NCBI GenBank assembly: GCA_038209275.1
Contig: JBBQXW010000039.1
Coordinates: forward strand, 1-24,000
Reading direction: 5' to 3'
Length of the DNA stretch: 24,000 nucleotides
Source: Chloroflexia bacterium
Lineage (GTDB): Bacteria > Chloroflexota > Chloroflexia > Chloroheliales > Chloroheliaceae
The translations under genes were made by a program, and so were the position numbers. The notes beneath the pieces were generated by a model. That model was not told where the DNA came from and made no database searches. It worked only from the letters and a program-made list of their open reading frames with translations. Of the stretch, positions 1 to 11,493 are shown piece by piece. Position 1 is the stretch's first letter, and each line of letters begins with the position of its first letter.

Positions 1-938
1 TTATCGAGCAAATCCAGCCTGGCCCGGCGCGGCCAGTTGTTTAGGTCAGCCCCGGCCAGACACAGCGCCAGATAGCGCACAAAGGTACTTTTGCCACTGC
101 CCGGCGCACCCAAAATCACCAGCCTGTCACGCGCCGCCGCCAGATGATTGAGGTGCAGCGTCATCACGTTTTCATGAATCCCGTTGTTCCAGCGATTACG
201 GTAAGAATGTTCCTCATCAGGTTTGGCCTGTGGATTCTCCTGCCGATAGAGTTCAATTTGCTCTTTTACTTCGTCAATCAGGATTTCAAAGGGCTGGCGT
301 TCGTAGCCGAGTTCTTCAGGTGTATGGGGAAGCCGCCCCGCCCGGTCATTGGCGAACTTAACACGCGGCTCGTCGGTGCGGGTTAGCCCCCAGTCCACCA
401 CCTGCCAATTGTCAACCTCCACGCTCAAGGCCAATGGGGTAGGCGAATCAACATAAACGTCTTCGAGGAAGATGTCCTGGGGCTGGTCGGGGTTAATCTG
501 GGCCAGATTTACCGTGCCAATCCGCTCCACCAAACGCCGCAAATAGGTCTGGTGCAACGGATTGCGCTTGTGGCGGTCAAAGCGAACGGCCCGCCCGCCC
601 GGTGAGGTCGGCTCGTTCGGGTGGCGGGGCAACCCAATTCCCGGCTCGATTTCTTCCAGAAAATCTACTACTGCCTGATACGGTTGCGAATACTGCTCAT
701 AGTGACCGACCAGCCCGATTAAGGCTTCCAGACCGCCTTCGTAGTTGACACAGAAATTCACCAGTTCACTTACATCATTCAAAGCTCTATCAATTTGAGC
801 GGCGTTGTAAATTTTGCCGGTCTCTCTCTCCCAGGCGCGGATTAATTGTTCGCGGCTACTTTTGATTCCAACCGCATCACAAGCTGAAAGCAACTTCACC
901 AATTCTTTGAGTTGTGCTAATTCGAGTTTTATTTTCAT
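1..938 (-). CDS. STAND/NACHT-type P-loop NTPase, 5' part only (gene continues beyond position 1), with an N-terminal helical effector-associated (EAD-like) adaptor module
   Basis: Missing from the ORF track because it has no stop in the window. Hand translation of the minus strand from ATG 938-936 stays open for all 312 codons to position 1: MKIKLELAQLKELVKLLSACDAVGIKSSREQLIRAWERETGKIYNAAQIDRALNDVSELVNFCVNYEGGLEALIGLVGHYEQYSQPYQAVVDFLEEI...FLEDVYVDSP...DRLVILGAPGSGKSTFVRYLALCLAG. The Walker A motif GAPGSGKST is encoded at 84-110. The N-terminal ~90 aa align to the C-terminus of the neighbouring TIR protein. Confidence 0.85.
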   Translation of the reverse strand, partial: MKIKLELAQLKELVKLLSACDAVGIKSSREQLIRAWERETGKIYNAAQIDRALNDVSELVNFCVNYEGGLEALIGLVGHYEQYSQPYQAVVDFLEEIEPGIGLPRHPNEPTSPGGRAVRFDRHKRNPLHQTYLRRLVERIGTVNLAQINPDQPQDIFLEDVYVDSPTPLALSVEVDNWQVVDWGLTRTDEPRVKFANDRAGRLPHTPEELGYERQPFEILIDEVKEQIELYRQENPQAKPDEEHSYRNRWNNGIHENVMTLHLNHLAAARDRLVILGAPGSGKSTFVRYLALCLAGADLNNWPRRARLDLLD

Positions 939-960
939 TTGTGTACTTCATTCAGGCTTA

Positions 961-1029
961 CCCGGCCCTGAAGAGCCGGGCTAAAAAGGGTCAGGCCATC
1001 TATTTTTAGCCCGGCTCTTCAGGGCCGGG
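961..1029. repeat. Perfect 27-nt inverted repeat (long hairpin/cruciform) in the divergent NTPase/TIR control region
   Basis: CCCGGCCCTGAAGAGCCGGGCTAAAAA (961-987) is the exact reverse complement of TTTTTAGCCCGGCTCTTCAGGGCCGGG (1003-1029), with a 15-nt loop. Each arm also contains its own mini-palindrome, CCCGGC-N8-GCCGGG. The left arm starts 23 nt from the NTPase ATG (938). Confidence 0.9.
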
Positions 1030-1065
1030 CCTTTCTCATCTACCGAAATCAACTAATTATTGCTA

Positions 1066-1093
1066 TTGGTTTCAGTATAACATATGTTATAAT
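1066..1093 (+). promoter_or_regulatory. Putative sigma70-type promoter for the TIR gene
   Basis: TTGGTT (1066-1071), a 16-nt spacer including the TG, then the extended -10 TGTTATAAT (1085-1093). AGGAG SD at 1130-1134 lies 8 nt before ATG 1143. Sequence pattern only. Confidence 0.4.
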
Positions 1094-1142
1094 TTTTCAA
1101 AACGTGGTTTGTTAAATGTAACCTGACTCAGGAGCAAAAAAA

Positions 1143-1952
1143 ATGAGCGCCAGCCCCAACCGTTTGCAACTTTATTTGTGCCACGCCGACGTAGATAAAC
1201 CGAAGGTACGCCAGCTTTACCAGCAGCTAGAAAACGATGGCATGCAACCCTGGTTCGACGAAGAAGATTTGGATATAGGCGGCGACCGGGAGCAAATAGT
1301 TGCCGCCGCGATTAAAGAATCTCATGCTATCGTGGTTTGTCTTTCAAAGCAGGCGCTTAACACTGCTGGCTTCATTCATAGGGAACTAAAATGGGCGCTG
1401 GAGAAAGCCGAATTACAGCCTGAAGGAGCAGTCACGATTATTCCAGTACGGCTGGATGATTGTGCGATACCTCATAAGTTGGAAGGACTTGTTTCGGTAG
1501 ATTTATTTGGCGAAGGCGGCGGCTACGGGCGGCTAATCAAATCGCTCACCAAAATGGCCGAGCGTCGCAAGCTGGAAACTACCTCACCTACCAGGTCATC
1601 CACCAGCCCGGCTAACTTTACCCTATCTTCGGCAACTGCTCCGGCTTCGCCAGCTTCTGATTCGCCCAAAGTGCTGAGTTTTGCCGAGCGGAGCGGAATA
1701 ATAGAGCGCCTGATGGCCTGTCATTCCCTCAGTAATCCCGGTTCGCGAGAAACCGTTATCCAAAATCTACCCGCACAAATCGCCAGTTCAGTAGCGCGGG
1801 CCTCCCAAACTAGCGTTGACGTTTCCAATTTGCTGACTACCTGCCTTAACTATCCGCAAGGCTTGCAAAAACTGCTGGAAGTAGTGAGCTTTTTCGAGCA
1901 GGGCAGCATCCCGTTCCGCGAACTGGAGAGTTATGTCAAGCAAATTCTTTGA
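1143..1952 (+). CDS. TIR-domain protein with S/T/P-rich linker and C-terminal EAD-like adaptor module (putative NADase effector)
   Basis: 269-aa ORF with a good SD. The N-terminal ~140 aa have a bacterial TIR_2-like pattern: LYLCHADVDKPKVRQLYQQLENDGMQPWFDEEDLDIGGD...AIKESHAIVVCLSKQALNTAGFIHRELKWAL, with a candidate catalytic Glu at E81. Linker: TSPTRSSTSPANFTLSSATAPASPASDSP. The C-terminal ~90 aa (nt ~1674-1949), ERLMACHSLSNPGSRETVI...DVSNLLTTCLNYPQGLQKLLEVVSFFEQGSIPF, align to the N-terminus of the divergent NTPase. Confidence 0.85.
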   Translation: MSASPNRLQLYLCHADVDKPKVRQLYQQLENDGMQPWFDEEDLDIGGDREQIVAAAIKESHAIVVCLSKQALNTAGFIHRELKWALEKAELQPEGAVTIIPVRLDDCAIPHKLEGLVSVDLFGEGGGYGRLIKSLTKMAERRKLETTSPTRSSTSPANFTLSSATAPASPASDSPKVLSFAERSGIIERLMACHSLSNPGSRETVIQNLPAQIASSVARASQTSVDVSNLLTTCLNYPQGLQKLLEVVSFFEQGSIPFRELESYVKQIL

Positions 1953-2166
1953 TACTAAGCCAGATGTAGCATTTACTACAGGATAGCACCCCAAAACGTG
2001 TTAAACTTAGGGTACTGATTATAGATTCACTTGCCTGTACCTGTACGAGAAAAAGCCCTTGCTCGAATTTTATTACGCCTGAAATAGCGGCGATGTTTTC
2101 ATTGCTTATCAAAAAGAAGCTCAATCAGCTATTATAATAAAGCGTTAGTCAGTAAGGAGTTTGAAC

Positions 2167-2514
2167 ATGGAAACCAGCGTATGGGCCGCGATTGCGGTGG
2201 CAGGGGCGTGGATTGCCGGGCTTGCCATCCTTTTTGCCATTTTAGCATTTTGCTTTGGCGTAATTCGGCCCTCTTTGTTCCGCTACGGTATAATCTATCT
2301 GTTTATTACCGATGCAGGTATTATTTTGATGCTGGCGGCAGTCCTGGTCATTGTAAATGACGCGGTACTCTGGACGTTCAGCTTAATCGGCCTGATAGTT
2401 ATGGTCTTGCTGACCGCAATTGCAGTTCTAGCAATCCGTAATTTGCGCGTGCGCGGCGAGATAGCATCGCTCGGTTCGCTTATCGAGGGTACACGGCAGC
2501 GTATCGAATTCTAA
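2167..2514 (+). CDS. Small integral membrane protein (3-4 predicted TM helices), function unknown
   Basis: The ORF track starts at TTG 2161. AAGGAG at 2154-2159 is better spaced (7 nt) for ATG 2167. The sequence is almost entirely hydrophobic (AAIAVAGAWIAGLAILFAILAFCFGVI..., LMLAAVLVIV..., LIGLIVMVLLTAIAVLAI). An intrinsic terminator follows. Confidence 0.65.
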   Translation: METSVWAAIAVAGAWIAGLAILFAILAFCFGVIRPSLFRYGIIYLFITDAGIILMLAAVLVIVNDAVLWTFSLIGLIVMVLLTAIAVLAIRNLRVRGEIASLGSLIEGTRQRIEF

Positions 2515-6000: not shown

Positions 6001-6426
6001 TTAAGCGGCGAAGCTGTAATTTTCGATTTGGACGAGGTGATGAAAGTTAATTGCGACCAGTTTGCGGTAAAGGGCGCTATCGGGATTGGTTACGCTGACG
6101 TAGCCGCCTGCTTCCAGCGCAGCGTTGCGAACGTTCACCAGGGCAGCAACACCGGCACTGTCCAGGTTCTTTAAGTCCGATAGGTCGAAAACGAAAGAAG
6201 TATAGCCGTTAGCAATAAAAGTTTTGACCAGTGATTTGAAAAGCAGGCTATTAGCAGTAGTCAGTTTGCCGACCAGGTGCAAGCGTACCGTGTCTTCCTC
6301 CATCCCTACACCCAACATCAAACCTTTGTTCGCCAATTGCTGCATCAAAGCCGAGCGATTATCTTCAATTTTGGCAACGCTGATTTCTTTGTTGGTAGGA
6401 AGGGTAGTAAGACGAAAGTTAAACAT
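6001..6426 (-). CDS. STAS-domain protein (anti-sigma-factor-antagonist-like)
   Basis: 141-aa ORF with GGAG SD. FVFDLSDLKNLDSAGVAALVNVRNAALEAGGYVSVTNP matches the STAS/SpoIIAA core, including the DSxG serine position. Confidence 0.75.
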   Translation of the reverse strand: MFNFRLTTLPTNKEISVAKIEDNRSALMQQLANKGLMLGVGMEEDTVRLHLVGKLTTANSLLFKSLVKTFIANGYTSFVFDLSDLKNLDSAGVAALVNVRNAALEAGGYVSVTNPDSALYRKLVAINFHHLVQIENYSFAA

Positions 6427-6616: not shown

Positions 6617-7419
6617 CTAGGCAACCAGATTAAGAGGATAATTGAGGGCCATTACCAGCTCGGATAATGAAGACTTGCCATCAGTAGAGCCAATTCTTGG
6701 GGCAAATTGGATTTCGTCGCACTGGGCGCGCAACTCCCGTATAGTCATGACCAGTCGGTCAATCTCCTGCGCAATTGCCGAGGCGTTTGCTTCGGTCAAA
6801 ACAAAATCGGGCTTGACTGCTTGCGCCCGTTGCAAAAATAGCATTACCGAGGGATATTTAGCAATAGCCTGAAGCTTGAGCGGGCTTTTTAAATCGGGCA
6901 GGACCAGCGGCGATACTGATAGTTCTTGCTCTCCATAGACCCACAACGCCGTCCGGCTTGTCACCAGAATCTTCAGGGCCGGACAACCTGCCAGCAAATC
7001 AGAAACCAATCCGGCGGCATCGAGTACCAGCTCAAAATTATCCAGCACCAACAGTAGTTGGCGCGAACGTAAATACTCTTTCAGGCGGGCAATCAAAGGC
7101 TGGTCGCCACCTTCCTTTACCCCAAAGACCTGGGCAATGCTGGAAAGGCCGTATCATTGATGGCAGCCAGAGGTACAAAATAAACTTCGGCAAAATCGCC
7201 CAGCAAACTGGTAGCTAATTGCAAAGAGAGGCGAGTTTTGCCAATTCCACCTGGCCCGGTGAGCGTCACCAGCCGGACTCCCCCGGTACGGCGCAACAAT
7301 TCCTGAGCCACTGCCAATTCGCGCGCGCGCCCAATCAATGGAGTTACCTGCACCGGCAGCGACATTTTGGAACCCGACCCGATGTTAATTTCGCTCACCA
7401 TTTTAGCATAATTCGACAA
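6617..7419 (-). pseudogene. Frameshifted and C-terminally truncated STAND (NB-ARC/AfsR-MalT-like) ATPase relic
   Basis: Two adjacent minus-strand ORFs lie in different frames. ORF 7419-7117 carries Walker A (LVTLTGPGGIGKTRLSLQLA). ORF 7096-6617 carries Walker B and downstream motifs (LLLVLDNFELVLD, ILVTSRTAL, LFLQRAQAVKPDFVLTEANASAIAQ). Reading the second frame upstream of its start gives SIAQVFGVKEGGDQPLIARLKEYL, the expected continuation, which places a 1-nt frameshift near 7135-7160. The reading frame ends right after the NTPase module, with no sensor/repeat region. Confidence 0.6.
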
Positions 7420-9643: not shown

Positions 9644-10573
9644 TCAGAAACCAGAAATTTCTGCCGAAAAGGGGTTATCGTTTTGCCAGCCGACTTTGCC
9701 CAGGGTGCGGTAGCGTTCAAGGCGACGGATGGTTATTTCGCAGTAAACCGGGTCGCTATCGGTGGTGAAGCAACGCCGCCCGGCGATTTCGCAGGCCAGT
9801 AAAGTTGTGCCGGAGTGGGCGAAGAAATCCAGCACCAGATCGCCAGGCAGCGAACTGGCGGAAAGAATACGCTCGATAGCCTTGAGCGGCTTTTGGGCAT
9901 AGCAGCCGTTGACGTTTTCTTCGCGGCGGTAGAACACCTGCTGAATATCGAACCAGACGTTCCCGGCCCGAATATTCGGCGAACGACCCCGTGCCATATT
10001 TTCTTTTACTTCGCCGTCTATTTCTTTGTAGTACCCTGCCAGCGTTTTGGGGATTTCGGTGTATTGCGGGCTGAAGGGTGGCTGACCAAGCGTGTAATAC
10101 AAAAGTTCCTGGCGCACCGCCATCCAGTTGCGTTGCGTGCCGTAGCCGCGCTGATTTCGCATAGTGATAAAGCTGCGGGCGCGGAAAGGCGTGTCGCGCA
10201 TCATCAACATAAAATCTGGTAGCGGTTGAAATCCAGCATCCTGGTCAGCCCCCAGCCACAGATAAAGGCTGCTGTTTTCGCTCAGATGCGCCCGCGTAAT
10301 ATCTATCCAGCGCCGACACCAACCGATATAATGGGACAGTTCGCGCTCCTCGAAAGCGACCAGATTATAAGGCGGGTCGTGAATAGCGAGGGAGGCTTGC
10401 TCCGCTGCACATAGTTGAGTAATTTGTTCAGGATTGATGGCATCGAGACAACCAACGGCGTGACCGTTTTGGGGGTCGCGCCAGATTTCGCCCGGCTGCA
10501 CGCGGCAGTACGGCAACAATTTCTGGCGCAATTCAGGCACTTTATCGAGGCGCGGTAGTGGATTCTTTATCAT
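9644..10573 (-). CDS. Beta-class N6-adenine/N4-cytosine DNA methyltransferase; no cognate endonuclease seen
   Basis: 309-aa ORF. Catalytic motif IV DPPYN (LAIHDPPYNLV) precedes SAM-binding motif I (LVLDFFAHSGTTLLACEIAGRR), which is the beta-class order. The N-terminal PGEIWRD...GHAVGCLD resembles ParB-less phage/plasmid-type MTases. Confidence 0.85.
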   Translation of the reverse strand: MIKNPLPRLDKVPELRQKLLPYCRVQPGEIWRDPQNGHAVGCLDAINPEQITQLCAAEQASLAIHDPPYNLVAFEERELSHYIGWCRRWIDITRAHLSENSSLYLWLGADQDAGFQPLPDFMLMMRDTPFRARSFITMRNQRGYGTQRNWMAVRQELLYYTLGQPPFSPQYTEIPKTLAGYYKEIDGEVKENMARGRSPNIRAGNVWFDIQQVFYRREENVNGCYAQKPLKAIERILSASSLPGDLVLDFFAHSGTTLLACEIAGRRCFTTDSDPVYCEITIRRLERYRTLGKVGWQNDNPFSAEISGF

Positions 10574-10587
10574 ATAAAGTTAAAAAT

Positions 10588-11493
10588 CTAGCCCGCCGCC
10601 CGCTTGAACTGGTCGGGTGGGAAAGCCTGGGCCGCAATACAGCGCGCCGACCATTCGTTTAGCTGCTTCAGCACTTCGTCCAGTTCATCGCCGATAGCAT
10701 CTACCAAAGGCTGTTCCATTCTATCGGTGGTTTCTTCAATCGAGTGGCGCGCTTGCTGCCCTGCCGGGGTCAGCGCCCCGTCCGCTACCAGCCCGGCGGC
10801 TTCGAGTCGCTTTACCTCGGCGGCAATCGTTTCGGCACTCCAACCGCGTGTGGCGGTATACGAGCCTAGCGGCATCCCGACATAAAGTTCGGTCAGAATG
10901 TTCATTGCCACCGGGCCAAATCCGGCAGTGATGTAAGCAGCGATGTGGCTATCACCCCGGTGTTCCCTGACTAAATCACAGGCCCGCCACAACTGCCCGA
11001 TTGAACTGCCCGGCCAGGGCTGGGCTTGTAGTCCGGCAAACAAAGGCCGACCTGTACCATCGGCGGCGGCCAGACCGCGACGCAAAGCTGCTACCGCGAA
11101 ACTAACGTCTACGCCTGCCAGGGTTTGTGCCAAACTGCTCACGGTTGCTTCCTCGCGTGCCGCCAGCATTTCGGCCCGGCCCAGTTTTTGACGACCTTCG
11201 TCATAAAGGGCTGTAACCAGGCCCGGCTCAAAAGCGGCAAAAGTGGCGACTACTACCGAGGCAGGTGGTTCGCCCAGCGCGGCGGCTCTACCCCAGACAT
11301 AGCTGGTCAGAAAGTTCAGACCCAATGCCGCTAACCGCTCGTTAGTCAGGCGCGACCAGATGGCGTGCATGGCGATTGGTTCGCCGCTATCGCGCAAACG
11401 ACGGGCGGGACTACCTTCTGCTACCGGGTAGGGCGCTGGCGCATCCGGCGGGCTGGGCTGAAAAAATACCTGGGTAGCGGTTTCGTAATCCAT
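10588..11493 (-). CDS. Conserved hypothetical protein, Ala/Gly-rich actinobacterial-type (resembles the family NCBI names 'SCO6745 family protein'); function unknown
   Basis: 301-aa ORF with GGAGG SD. It is visibly GC-richer than its neighbours. The pattern HAIWSRL...LGLNFLTSYVWGRAAALGEPPASVVVATFAAFEPGLV recalls that family from memory only; no search was run. Confidence 0.6.
   Translation of the reverse strand: MDYETATQVFFQPSPPDAPAPYPVAEGSPARRLRDSGEPIAMHAIWSRLTNERLAALGLNFLTSYVWGRAAALGEPPASVVVATFAAFEPGLVTALYDEGRQKLGRAEMLAAREEATVSSLAQTLAGVDVSFAVAALRRGLAAADGTGRPLFAGLQAQPWPGSSIGQLWRACDLVREHRGDSHIAAYITAGFGPVAMNILTELYVGMPLGSYTATRGWSAETIAAEVKRLEAAGLVADGALTPAGQQARHSIEETTDRMEQPLVDAIGDELDEVLKQLNEWSARCIAAQAFPPDQFKRAAG

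Follow-up and report, generated by a model that had tools for sequence, protein, structure and literature searches.

The first 1952 nucleotides of a 24,000-nt stretch of DNA from a Chloroflexia bacterium (family Chloroheliaceae; contig JBBQXW010000039.1; hereafter the window, meaning the whole stretch) hold two divergent genes, one for a TIR protein and one for the first part of a putative NACHT-type NTPase. Their products share a small helical module, the effector-associated domain EAD2, placed at the N-terminus of the NTPase but at the C-terminus of the TIR protein. The effector gene (1143..1952, plus strand) is an open reading frame (ORF) of 269 aa plus stop, in which Pfam profiles and an AlphaFold2 (AF2) model give the order TIR, disordered S/T/P linker, EAD2. 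The TIR domain (1173..1514) matches TIR_2 (PF13676) at residues 11-124 with 77.3 bits (cut-off 28) and is structured to approximately residue 146, and the EAD2 module (PF19956; 1680..1946) comprises helices at residues 180-268 of the model and residues 188-263 of the profile match (63.0 bits, E 3.2e-17, profile positions 2-78). In the model of the whole protein, whose mean pLDDT is 84.4, the TIR is flavodoxin-like and residues 180-268 form a confident helical bundle, with pLDDT >90 across most of the module; the two are connected by a flexible S/T/P-rich tether (residues 150-172; 1590..1658) that has pLDDT below 50 and no secondary structure.

The glutamate of the W..E motif is the catalytic residue in bacterial TIR NADases. 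Motif alignment places it in the window TIR at Glu81 (codon 1383-1385), which is invariant across nine sequences of the TIR sub-family and aligns, in profile-to-PDB comparison, with the Glu of '...WTEYEL' in BtTir (7uxr) and of '...WPQKEL' in PdTIR (3h16). The top Foldseek match of the TIR domain was the SPARTA TIR-APAZ, followed by MyD88, AbTir, plant TIRs (RUN1) and SARM1, with a probability of 1.00; SPARTA TIR domains are activated by oligomerisation (tetramerisation). The window TIR looks catalytic, and NADase activity is predicted for it.

The sensor gene runs on the minus strand (1..938), starting at 938 and remaining free of stops for 312 codons down to base 1, where the left edge of the window cuts it. 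This 5' part, delimited by its open frame and Pfam matches, encodes the EAD2 adaptor, a linker, a pre-NACHT region and the start of NACHT. The adaptor, also covered by an AF2 model, occupies residues 14-93 (660..899; 36.8 bits, E 4.7e-09, profile positions 1-79 of 81), above the EAD2 gathering cut-off of 23.8 bits. The conserved pre-NACHT region, residues 128 to ~265 (LHQTYLRRLVERIGT...LEDVYVDSPT; 144..557), was delimited by invariant columns of the family alignment, in which it forms the constant junction behind a variable head. The Walker A motif or P-loop, GAPGSGKST, was read from the translation at residues 277-285 (84..110), where the NACHT, nSTAND3 and AAA profiles align, and the P-loop families in general (NACHT, nSTAND3, AAA_16, FtsK) match at residues ~265-300. 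The window stops ~30 residues into the NTPase domain, so that the NACHT profile covers only 29 residues there and reaches 17.9 bits vs a cut-off of 26.7. Judged by its relatives, the full protein would be some 1000 aa long, a STAND ATPase of the NACHT clade whose predicted C-terminal sensor is an FGE-sulfatase/C-type-lectin-fold domain (FGS); the 24-kb window contains nothing FGS-like, and the sensor end would lie outside it.

The homology of the two EAD2 modules is evident. BLASTP aligns them with 26/93 identities, 55% positives and one 2-residue gap (E = 2e-13), and their Smith-Waterman score is 113 vs 24.2 +/- 4.2 (maximum 52) in 5000 shuffles, none of which reached it (0/5000; z = 21). A preliminary description of the locus, made by reading the sequence, had counted ~22 identities over 80 positions with a 2-aa indel between the modules, had divided gene 1143-1952 into TIR, S/T/P linker and C-terminal module, and had placed a Walker A motif about 290 aa into the NTPase gene, behind an N-terminal helical module. 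The alignments, the shuffled controls, the disorder of the linker and the position of the P-loop agree with that account, and the profile searches it proposed identify the module as the EAD2 of the Aravind group, both proteins passing the Pfam threshold for EAD2 and gene 1143-1952 also that for TIR_2. The same description had called the contacts between such modules 'death-domain-like', which did not hold beyond analogy. The AF2 model of the NTPase EAD2 (residues 5-101; pLDDT 94.2, pTM 0.85), for which an alignment of six sequences sufficed, is an all-helical bundle of ~90 residues with six main helices and one short one. A Foldseek search of the PDB with it gave nothing significant (best E = 2.0; the Bcl10 CARD at rank 15 with E = 6.4 and TM 0.37), and the search of predicted viral structures in BFVD likewise gave no significant match. 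Because this confident model matches no solved structure, membership of EAD2 in the death fold is not indicated, and the term 'death-domain-like' can be used for it as an analogy only.

The divergent pair recurs. P0012, which at 58% full-length identity is the nearest homologue of the TIR-EAD2 protein, is encoded on a 5-kb metagenome contig (L002) and diverges from a gene that starts with EAD2 (29.6 bits) and continues into NACHT (37.5 bits, LLLDGLDEVP). These two loci, whose proteins are 54-58% identical, thus have the divergent arrangement and the matching EAD2 sub-types in common, and both pairs have the layout that Kaur et al. 2020 describe for EADs as coupling adaptors (PMC7159879). Between the two loci the NTPase-type EAD2 is 50% identical and the TIR-type is closer still, the whole TIR-EAD2 proteins being 58-60% identical, whereas identity between the types is about 30% (28% for the neighbours in the window), with a fixed 2-residue indel in both loci. 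The EAD2 copies on partners from the same locus are not the closest ones, since the window NTPase EAD2 is 28% identical to that of its neighbour and 50% to that of the L002 NTPase; for Kaur et al. 2020 the greater mutual similarity of adjacent EAD copies than of distant ones is a tendency and not a strict rule (PMC7159879). Because each sub-type is kept between the loci, the two EAD2 sub-types, and with them the pair, arose before the window and L002 loci separated. A word-indexed protein search with the EAD2 profile gave 4 matches, two of which were looked up: one (L025) is a 70-aa EAD2 remnant without a second EAD2, and at the other (L026) the N-terminus of the neighbouring gene lies beyond the contig end.

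The relatives of the NTPase were collected by searching homologues of the available fragment in a 5.8-billion-protein collection and by scanning genomes, one per species, for the motif LExVYVDSPT. The top homologues align from ~110 to 312 only, with a TIR or EAD1 upstream of this segment, and the family alignment has a sharp junction at LHQTYLRRLVERIGT..LEDVYVDSPT (LHQTYL...), behind which the body is conserved and in front of which everything is variable. The motif scan gave 14 loci, all in Chloroflexota metagenome-assembled genomes (MAGs) of Anaerolineae, Chloroheliaceae and Chloroflexia. Fifteen relatives reach 50-68% identity in the body (residues 128-312), and ten of the 14 relatives are complete or nearly so, with about 950-1140 aa. 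All 12 relatives with the C-terminal region covered end in an FGS (L003 and L004 included), which fits the earlier remark that the sensor part lies outside the window. In the complete NTPases (L015, L018, L021 and L022) the NACHT profile reaches 42-50 bits and a Walker B motif DGLDE is present, in accordance with the signature D[GAS]hDE by which Kibby et al. define NACHT (bioRxiv 10.1101/2022.07.19.500537). The heads differ widely: TIR at 8 of the 14 genome loci and in the protein matches P0001-P0006, EAD1 at L009, L015 and L017, a coiled coil at L018 and L022, and at L021 a caspase-like head that is assigned from sequence motifs only, with no Pfam match.

The body of the window NTPase is 67.6% identical to an EAD1-headed, 62% to a TIR-headed and 57.5% to the other EAD2-headed member. 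Because the bodies nearest to the window carry EAD1 or TIR heads, heads are exchanged faster than bodies diverge, even among close relatives. The cis-fused TIR of the relatives sits exactly where the window NTPase has EAD2, and by the standard argument for such a correspondence the EAD2 pair would stand in for the covalent TIR-NACHT link; effectors that other family members fuse directly to the core protein are among the marks of EAD coupling in Kaur et al. 2020 (PMC7159879). A simple or recent gene fission of a TIR-NACHT ancestor was rejected, as BLASTP finds no similarity between the window TIR and the cis-fused TIR. In the closest TIR-NACHT-FGS relative, an in-frame TAG occupies a conserved Glu codon (L003 6361-6363, likewise in L004-L008; …DHLWDYI*HEILGEAL…) some 30 codons ahead of Walker B, dividing the gene into ORFs of 402 and 640 aa; it was seen on six contigs from related samples, and the gene may be a pseudogene or may be expressed by read-through or suppression.

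The 204-bp intergenic region (939..1142) was examined by sequence inspection and with a repeat finder. A palindrome, TATAACATATGTTATA (1076-1091), overlaps a -10-like TATAAT (1088-1093), and this block lies 50 nt upstream of the TIR-EAD2 start codon, which is preceded by the Shine-Dalgarno sequence AGGAG (1130-1134, plus strand). When the intergenic regions were aligned after removal of an insertion sequence (IS) from L002, the palindrome/-10-like block (AGTATAACATATGTTATAAT in the window; AGTATATCACATGCTATAAT at L002 2340-2358) and the Shine-Dalgarno sequence were common to both. A generic sigma-70 promoter scan made no call in the intergenic region; the palindrome and TATAAT may serve as promoter and repressor site of a gene that is potentially toxic. 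On the side of the NTPase, 23 nt from its start codon, there is a perfect 27-nt inverted repeat, CCCGGCCCTGAAGAGCCGGGCTAAAAA (961-987 / 1003-1029), with a 15-nt spacer and with arms that are each a GC-rich hairpin. The repeat has no other copy in the 24-kb window and, because the orthologous L002 region is without it, is a lineage-specific insertion; a miniature palindromic mobile element, an operator and an insulator are the candidates for its nature. The IS of L002 (2394-3587, DDE_Tnp_1), which is flanked by duplicated ATCAAGGAGCA and has the inverted ends GGGCTTATGCGC / GCGCATAAGCCC, lies between the promoter-like block and the Shine-Dalgarno sequence of TIR-EAD2 and may silence this effector.

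An exhaustive EAD2 profile search over 1.84 billion cluster representatives (E <= 0.001) was made for a census of the module, and 1323 representatives matched. Of 136 multi-domain proteins, mostly the best matches of the census, 121 have EAD2 at one end. Kaur et al. 2020 describe coupling EADs as small, non-enzymatic and terminal in domain architectures (PMC7159879), and the two modules of the window agree with this. Its partners, counted from Pfam profiles (n=127), are led by TIR_2 (19), VMAP-C (12), CHAT (8) and bDLD1 (6), followed by caspase, trypsin and EAD1 (5 each) and FGE-sulfatase (4). The best EAD2 match of the census, P0028 (775 aa), carries three tandem EAD2 modules and then VMAP-C, and could be a multivalent hub for EAD2-tagged partners. 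A locus from a Chloroheliaceae MAG (L015 43-10420) encodes, in this order, an EAD1-NACHT-FGS protein, a 221-aa protein consisting solely of EAD1 and EAD2, an EAD2-VMAP-C protein, a MoxR-like AAA ATPase, an 843-aa FGS protein and an EAD1-trypsin. Because the flanking genes each carry one of its adaptors, the two-adaptor protein is hard to explain otherwise than as a bridge, and the locus appears to cross-wire a NACHT system with a VMAP ternary system through two adaptor types.

Two sets of relatives have, close by, a second copy of the final ~120 nt of their FGS coding sequence. The mismatches between the copies fall on template adenines in 19 of 21 cases in L003/L004 (TIR head; P = 1.5e-9) and in 17 of 26 cases in L022 (coiled-coil head; P = 1e-4), and the template repeats (TR), which contain runs of AAC codons, lie downstream of the NACHT-FGS genes (L003 8565-8684; L004 3629-3748; L022 16065-16173). 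Such adenine-specific pairs of template and variable repeats (VR) carry the signature of diversity-generating retroelements (DGRs), and the flanks of L003/L004 and L022 that were searched showed no reverse transcriptase. At L022 9779-15872, tandem STAND genes, one with NACHT (948 aa) and one with nSTAND1 (1032 aa, 347 bits), end in FGS domains with near-identical 3' ends upstream of one template repeat. Sensors of the STAND-CLec type that are targeted by DGRs have been described by Dore et al. (bioRxiv 10.1101/2023.09.22.558884) and Kaur et al. 2021 (PMC8195603), and the former found basal members of RT clade 5D in filamentous Chloroflexi and a DGR target, EAD8-nSTAND1-FGE, with an EAD8-trypsin partner. 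These two sets of relatives of the window NTPase resemble such sensors in the adenine-specific repeats at the 3' end of FGS; the 24-kb window differs in having no detectable TR, VR, FGS or reverse transcriptase sequence. We put forward tentatively, and with considerable doubt, that the window sensor is itself a DGR-hypermutated FGS of lectin fold, an antigen receptor open to somatic diversification that signals through a structurally new, non-death-fold EAD2 pair to a free TIR NADase. If this were true, the locus would hold a receptor-adaptor-effector chain of bacterial make, its components having no kinship with those of animals, with co-evolving complementary EAD2 sub-types.

The principle of coupling through EADs was proposed by Kaur, Burroughs, Iyer and Aravind (eLife 2020, PMC7159879), and STAND NTPase-FGS systems with EAD1, EAD2, EAD7 or EAD8 as the N-terminal adaptor were described in eLife 2021 (PMC8195603), which gives a bDLD3-NTPase-FGS with a bDLD3-TIR as an example pair. 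The window pair resembles these systems in the single N-terminal EAD on a putative NACHT-clade NTPase, in the FGS end of its relatives and in the swapping of heads within the family to TIR, caspase-like or EAD1 heads, as described there; it differs in that the published pair uses bDLD3 and the window pair EAD2, and in that the predicted FGS tail of the window gene would lie outside the window. In Kaur et al., EAD2 is mainly a VMAP-linked module of actinobacteria and cyanobacteria, whereas here it would link a TIR to a NACHT protein whose relatives from genomes all belong to Chloroflexota. With the TIR-NACHT, Avs and bNACHT systems (bioRxiv 10.1101/2022.07.19.500537; PMC13581612) the pair has in common a sensor, a STAND NTPase and an N-terminal output, and single-chain TIR-NACHT-FGS proteins are the closest homologues of the window NTPase (body 55-62% identical), but in the window the effector forms a polypeptide of its own, with a pair of adaptors as the link. 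The 'adaptor' heads of bNACHT proteins include EADs, and their sensors FGS, in the list of Kibby et al. (bioRxiv 10.1101/2022.07.19.500537); in the literature we found no tested bNACHT that is headed by an EAD or senses through an FGS, and according to Dore et al. the STAND proteins with CLec domains are experimentally unexamined (bioRxiv 10.1101/2023.09.22.558884).

The nearest experimental precedents are the CARD-like/NLR-like gasdermin system (Wein et al., PMC10312443) and LypABC (PMC13236601), in which a helical adaptor occurs on an ATPase and on a separate effector, is genetically required and regulates toxicity. Their adaptor is a true death-fold CARD by crystal structure, whereas the EAD2 model has no significant match in the PDB; their effectors are proteases (with gasdermin and others) and the window effector is a TIR; and in Lysobacter the NLR-like protein has its adaptor at the C-terminus. 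The preliminary description had considered split, adaptor-coupled architectures essentially uncharacterised experimentally, which stands for EAD2 and for EADs in general, as our full-text literature searches found no experiment on any of them, but does not extend to these CARD-like analogues (PMC10312443, PMC13236601). TLR/MyD88, death-domain assemblies and plant TNLs share with the window pair the concept of a sensor oligomer that nucleates a downstream TIR through modular domains; this likeness to animal and plant chains is an analogy only.

The domain identities, the homology of the EAD2 modules, the recurrence of the pair and the swapping of heads are established by these comparisons. We consider it likely that the pair is a two-gene, adaptor-coupled conflict system of NLR type and of the STAND NTPase-FGS kind, probably acting against phages by abortive infection. 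A system in which the NTPase recruits or activates the TIR protein through the shared module had been proposed in the preliminary description, and comparative genomics supports it through the L002 pair, the single orthologous divergent pair obtained when conservation of the neighbours was checked, and through the relatives with cis-fused TIR. The adaptor relay at L015 and the census of EAD2 partners are independent points in favour of the adaptor idea. From these data we infer EAD2-EAD2 binding, activation by oligomerisation, NADase activity and a role in defence. The FGS sensor would bind a molecule of the invader, and this ligand together with NTP exchange would cause the NACHT protein to oligomerise and cluster its N-terminal EAD2 heads. 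Each head would capture the C-terminal EAD2 of one TIR protein, held on its disordered tether of roughly 25-30 residues, and the TIR domains would be brought close enough to form the composite active site needed by TIR NADases. Glu81-dependent cleavage of NAD+ could then lead, by depletion or by a signal nucleotide, to arrest or death of the infected cell.

Several points weigh against this interpretation. Beyond the window there is just one orthologous pair, that of L002, and when metagenomes were scanned for orthologues of TIR-EAD2, two distant matches to the TIR alone came back. The NTPase is incomplete in the window, which shows the gene to codon 312 and ends before the places where Walker B, winged helix and sensor would lie. 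The window TIR has no BLASTP similarity to the cis-fused TIR of the relatives and belongs to a different sub-family. PADLOC-DB v2 and NCBIfam contain no model for this system, and the PADLOC check proposed in the preliminary description matched nothing system-specific: the matches were to generic TIR models (Aga_TIR, ThsB, PDC-S66; E 1e-7 to 1e-3) and to P-loop models only, and the EruA NACHT model scored 11.8 bits vs a cut-off of 1000. Kaur et al. 2020 tie EAD2 mainly to 'signalling' recruitment in VMAP ternary systems (PMC7159879). A different EAD2 core, encoded at another place in the genome, could be the one that the TIR-EAD2 protein works for.

The main rival in our ranking turns the role of the NTPase around: its EAD2 would bind the TIR-EAD2 protein constitutively and hold it inactive or sequestered, and sensing would free it or let EAD2 filaments form. 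CARD and PYD self-polymerise into filaments, and for EAD2 there is no indication of self-polymerisation, which counts against the filament version. Restraint by an adaptor does have a precedent in the Lysobacter gasdermin system, which became toxic once the NLR-like protein had its CARD-like domain deleted, the toxicity being reversed by mutation of the protease's CARD-like domain, from which its authors infer auto-repression (PMC10312443). The distinct, separately conserved EAD2 sub-types would also be compatible with a dedicated heterodimer. Induced proximity, however, explains more simply why relatives carry a cis-fused TIR at the same position, and we regard restraint as unlikely.

Two lesser readings question the pairing itself or its purpose. 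That the pair is incidental or vestigial, with TIR-EAD2 working for another EAD2 core such as a VMAP/MoxR ternary system or with the locus in decay, would agree with the description of EAD2 mostly on VMAP components and with VMAP-C as the second commonest partner in the census (12/127). Decay is also suggested by the IS of L002 between the promoter-like block and the ribosome-binding site of the TIR gene and by the in-frame TAG in the relative (L003-L008), and the window NTPase is readable only to codon 312. The divergent pairing has nevertheless been kept with matching EAD2 sub-types in two loci whose proteins are 54-58% identical, both window genes are intact as far as readable, with a good Shine-Dalgarno sequence on the TIR gene, and no further EAD2 that could be a second core occurs in the 24-kb window beyond the pair; this reading seems quite improbable to us. 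A non-antiviral function in regulated cell death, kin discrimination or development of a filamentous bacterium, with the TIR as a scaffold or signal producer, recalls the enrichment in multicellular prokaryotes stressed by Kaur et al. (PMC7159879, PMC8195603), the co-option of a CARD-NLR-like system for releasing gene-transfer agents (PMC13236601) and the presence of MyD88, a scaffold TIR, among the top structural matches. It is the least probable of the three and in our opinion very unlikely, given that the catalytic-type Glu is invariant, that neither the pair nor the part of the window downstream of it encodes a receptor (SLOG, Macro, SAVED) for a signal made by a TIR, and that DGR-type diversification of sensors in relatives is in keeping with an arms race against invaders.

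The literature already has the concept, the domain family and the class of system, and the finding adds an example and an experimental candidate. In the widely cited EAD principle, bacterial immune sensors recruit interchangeable separate effectors through docking modules, as death folds do in animal inflammasomes. If the mechanism proposed above is true, the pair would be a compact test bed for this principle, with one sensor and one 269-aa effector that has an obvious catalytic residue. No structure of EAD2 has been solved and no structural relative of it is detectable, and the pair is a good candidate for the first test of EAD coupling.

Elsewhere in the window, a strongly hydrophobic 117-aa ORF with a TTG start (2161-2514, plus strand) lies directly 3' of the TIR-EAD2 gene; it was rejected as a third component, having no family match and no counterpart downstream in L002, and probably does not belong to the system. 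The HIP1 sequence GCGATCGC is absent from the 24-kb window, and with the relatives from genomes all in Chloroflexota, a cyanobacterial source rich in HIP1 is unlikely. An N6/N4 DNA methyltransferase gene (9644-11493, minus strand) lies beside an HTH_67 gene and may be an orphan methylase, because no restriction enzyme was recognised among the scanned ORFs of the window. Two adjacent ORFs of 100 aa and 159 aa (6617-7419, minus strand) match AAA_16/nSTAND3 and collinear parts of phrog_24039 and look like fragments of a decayed STAND-like ATPase gene; they are adjoined by a STAS-domain gene (6001-6426).

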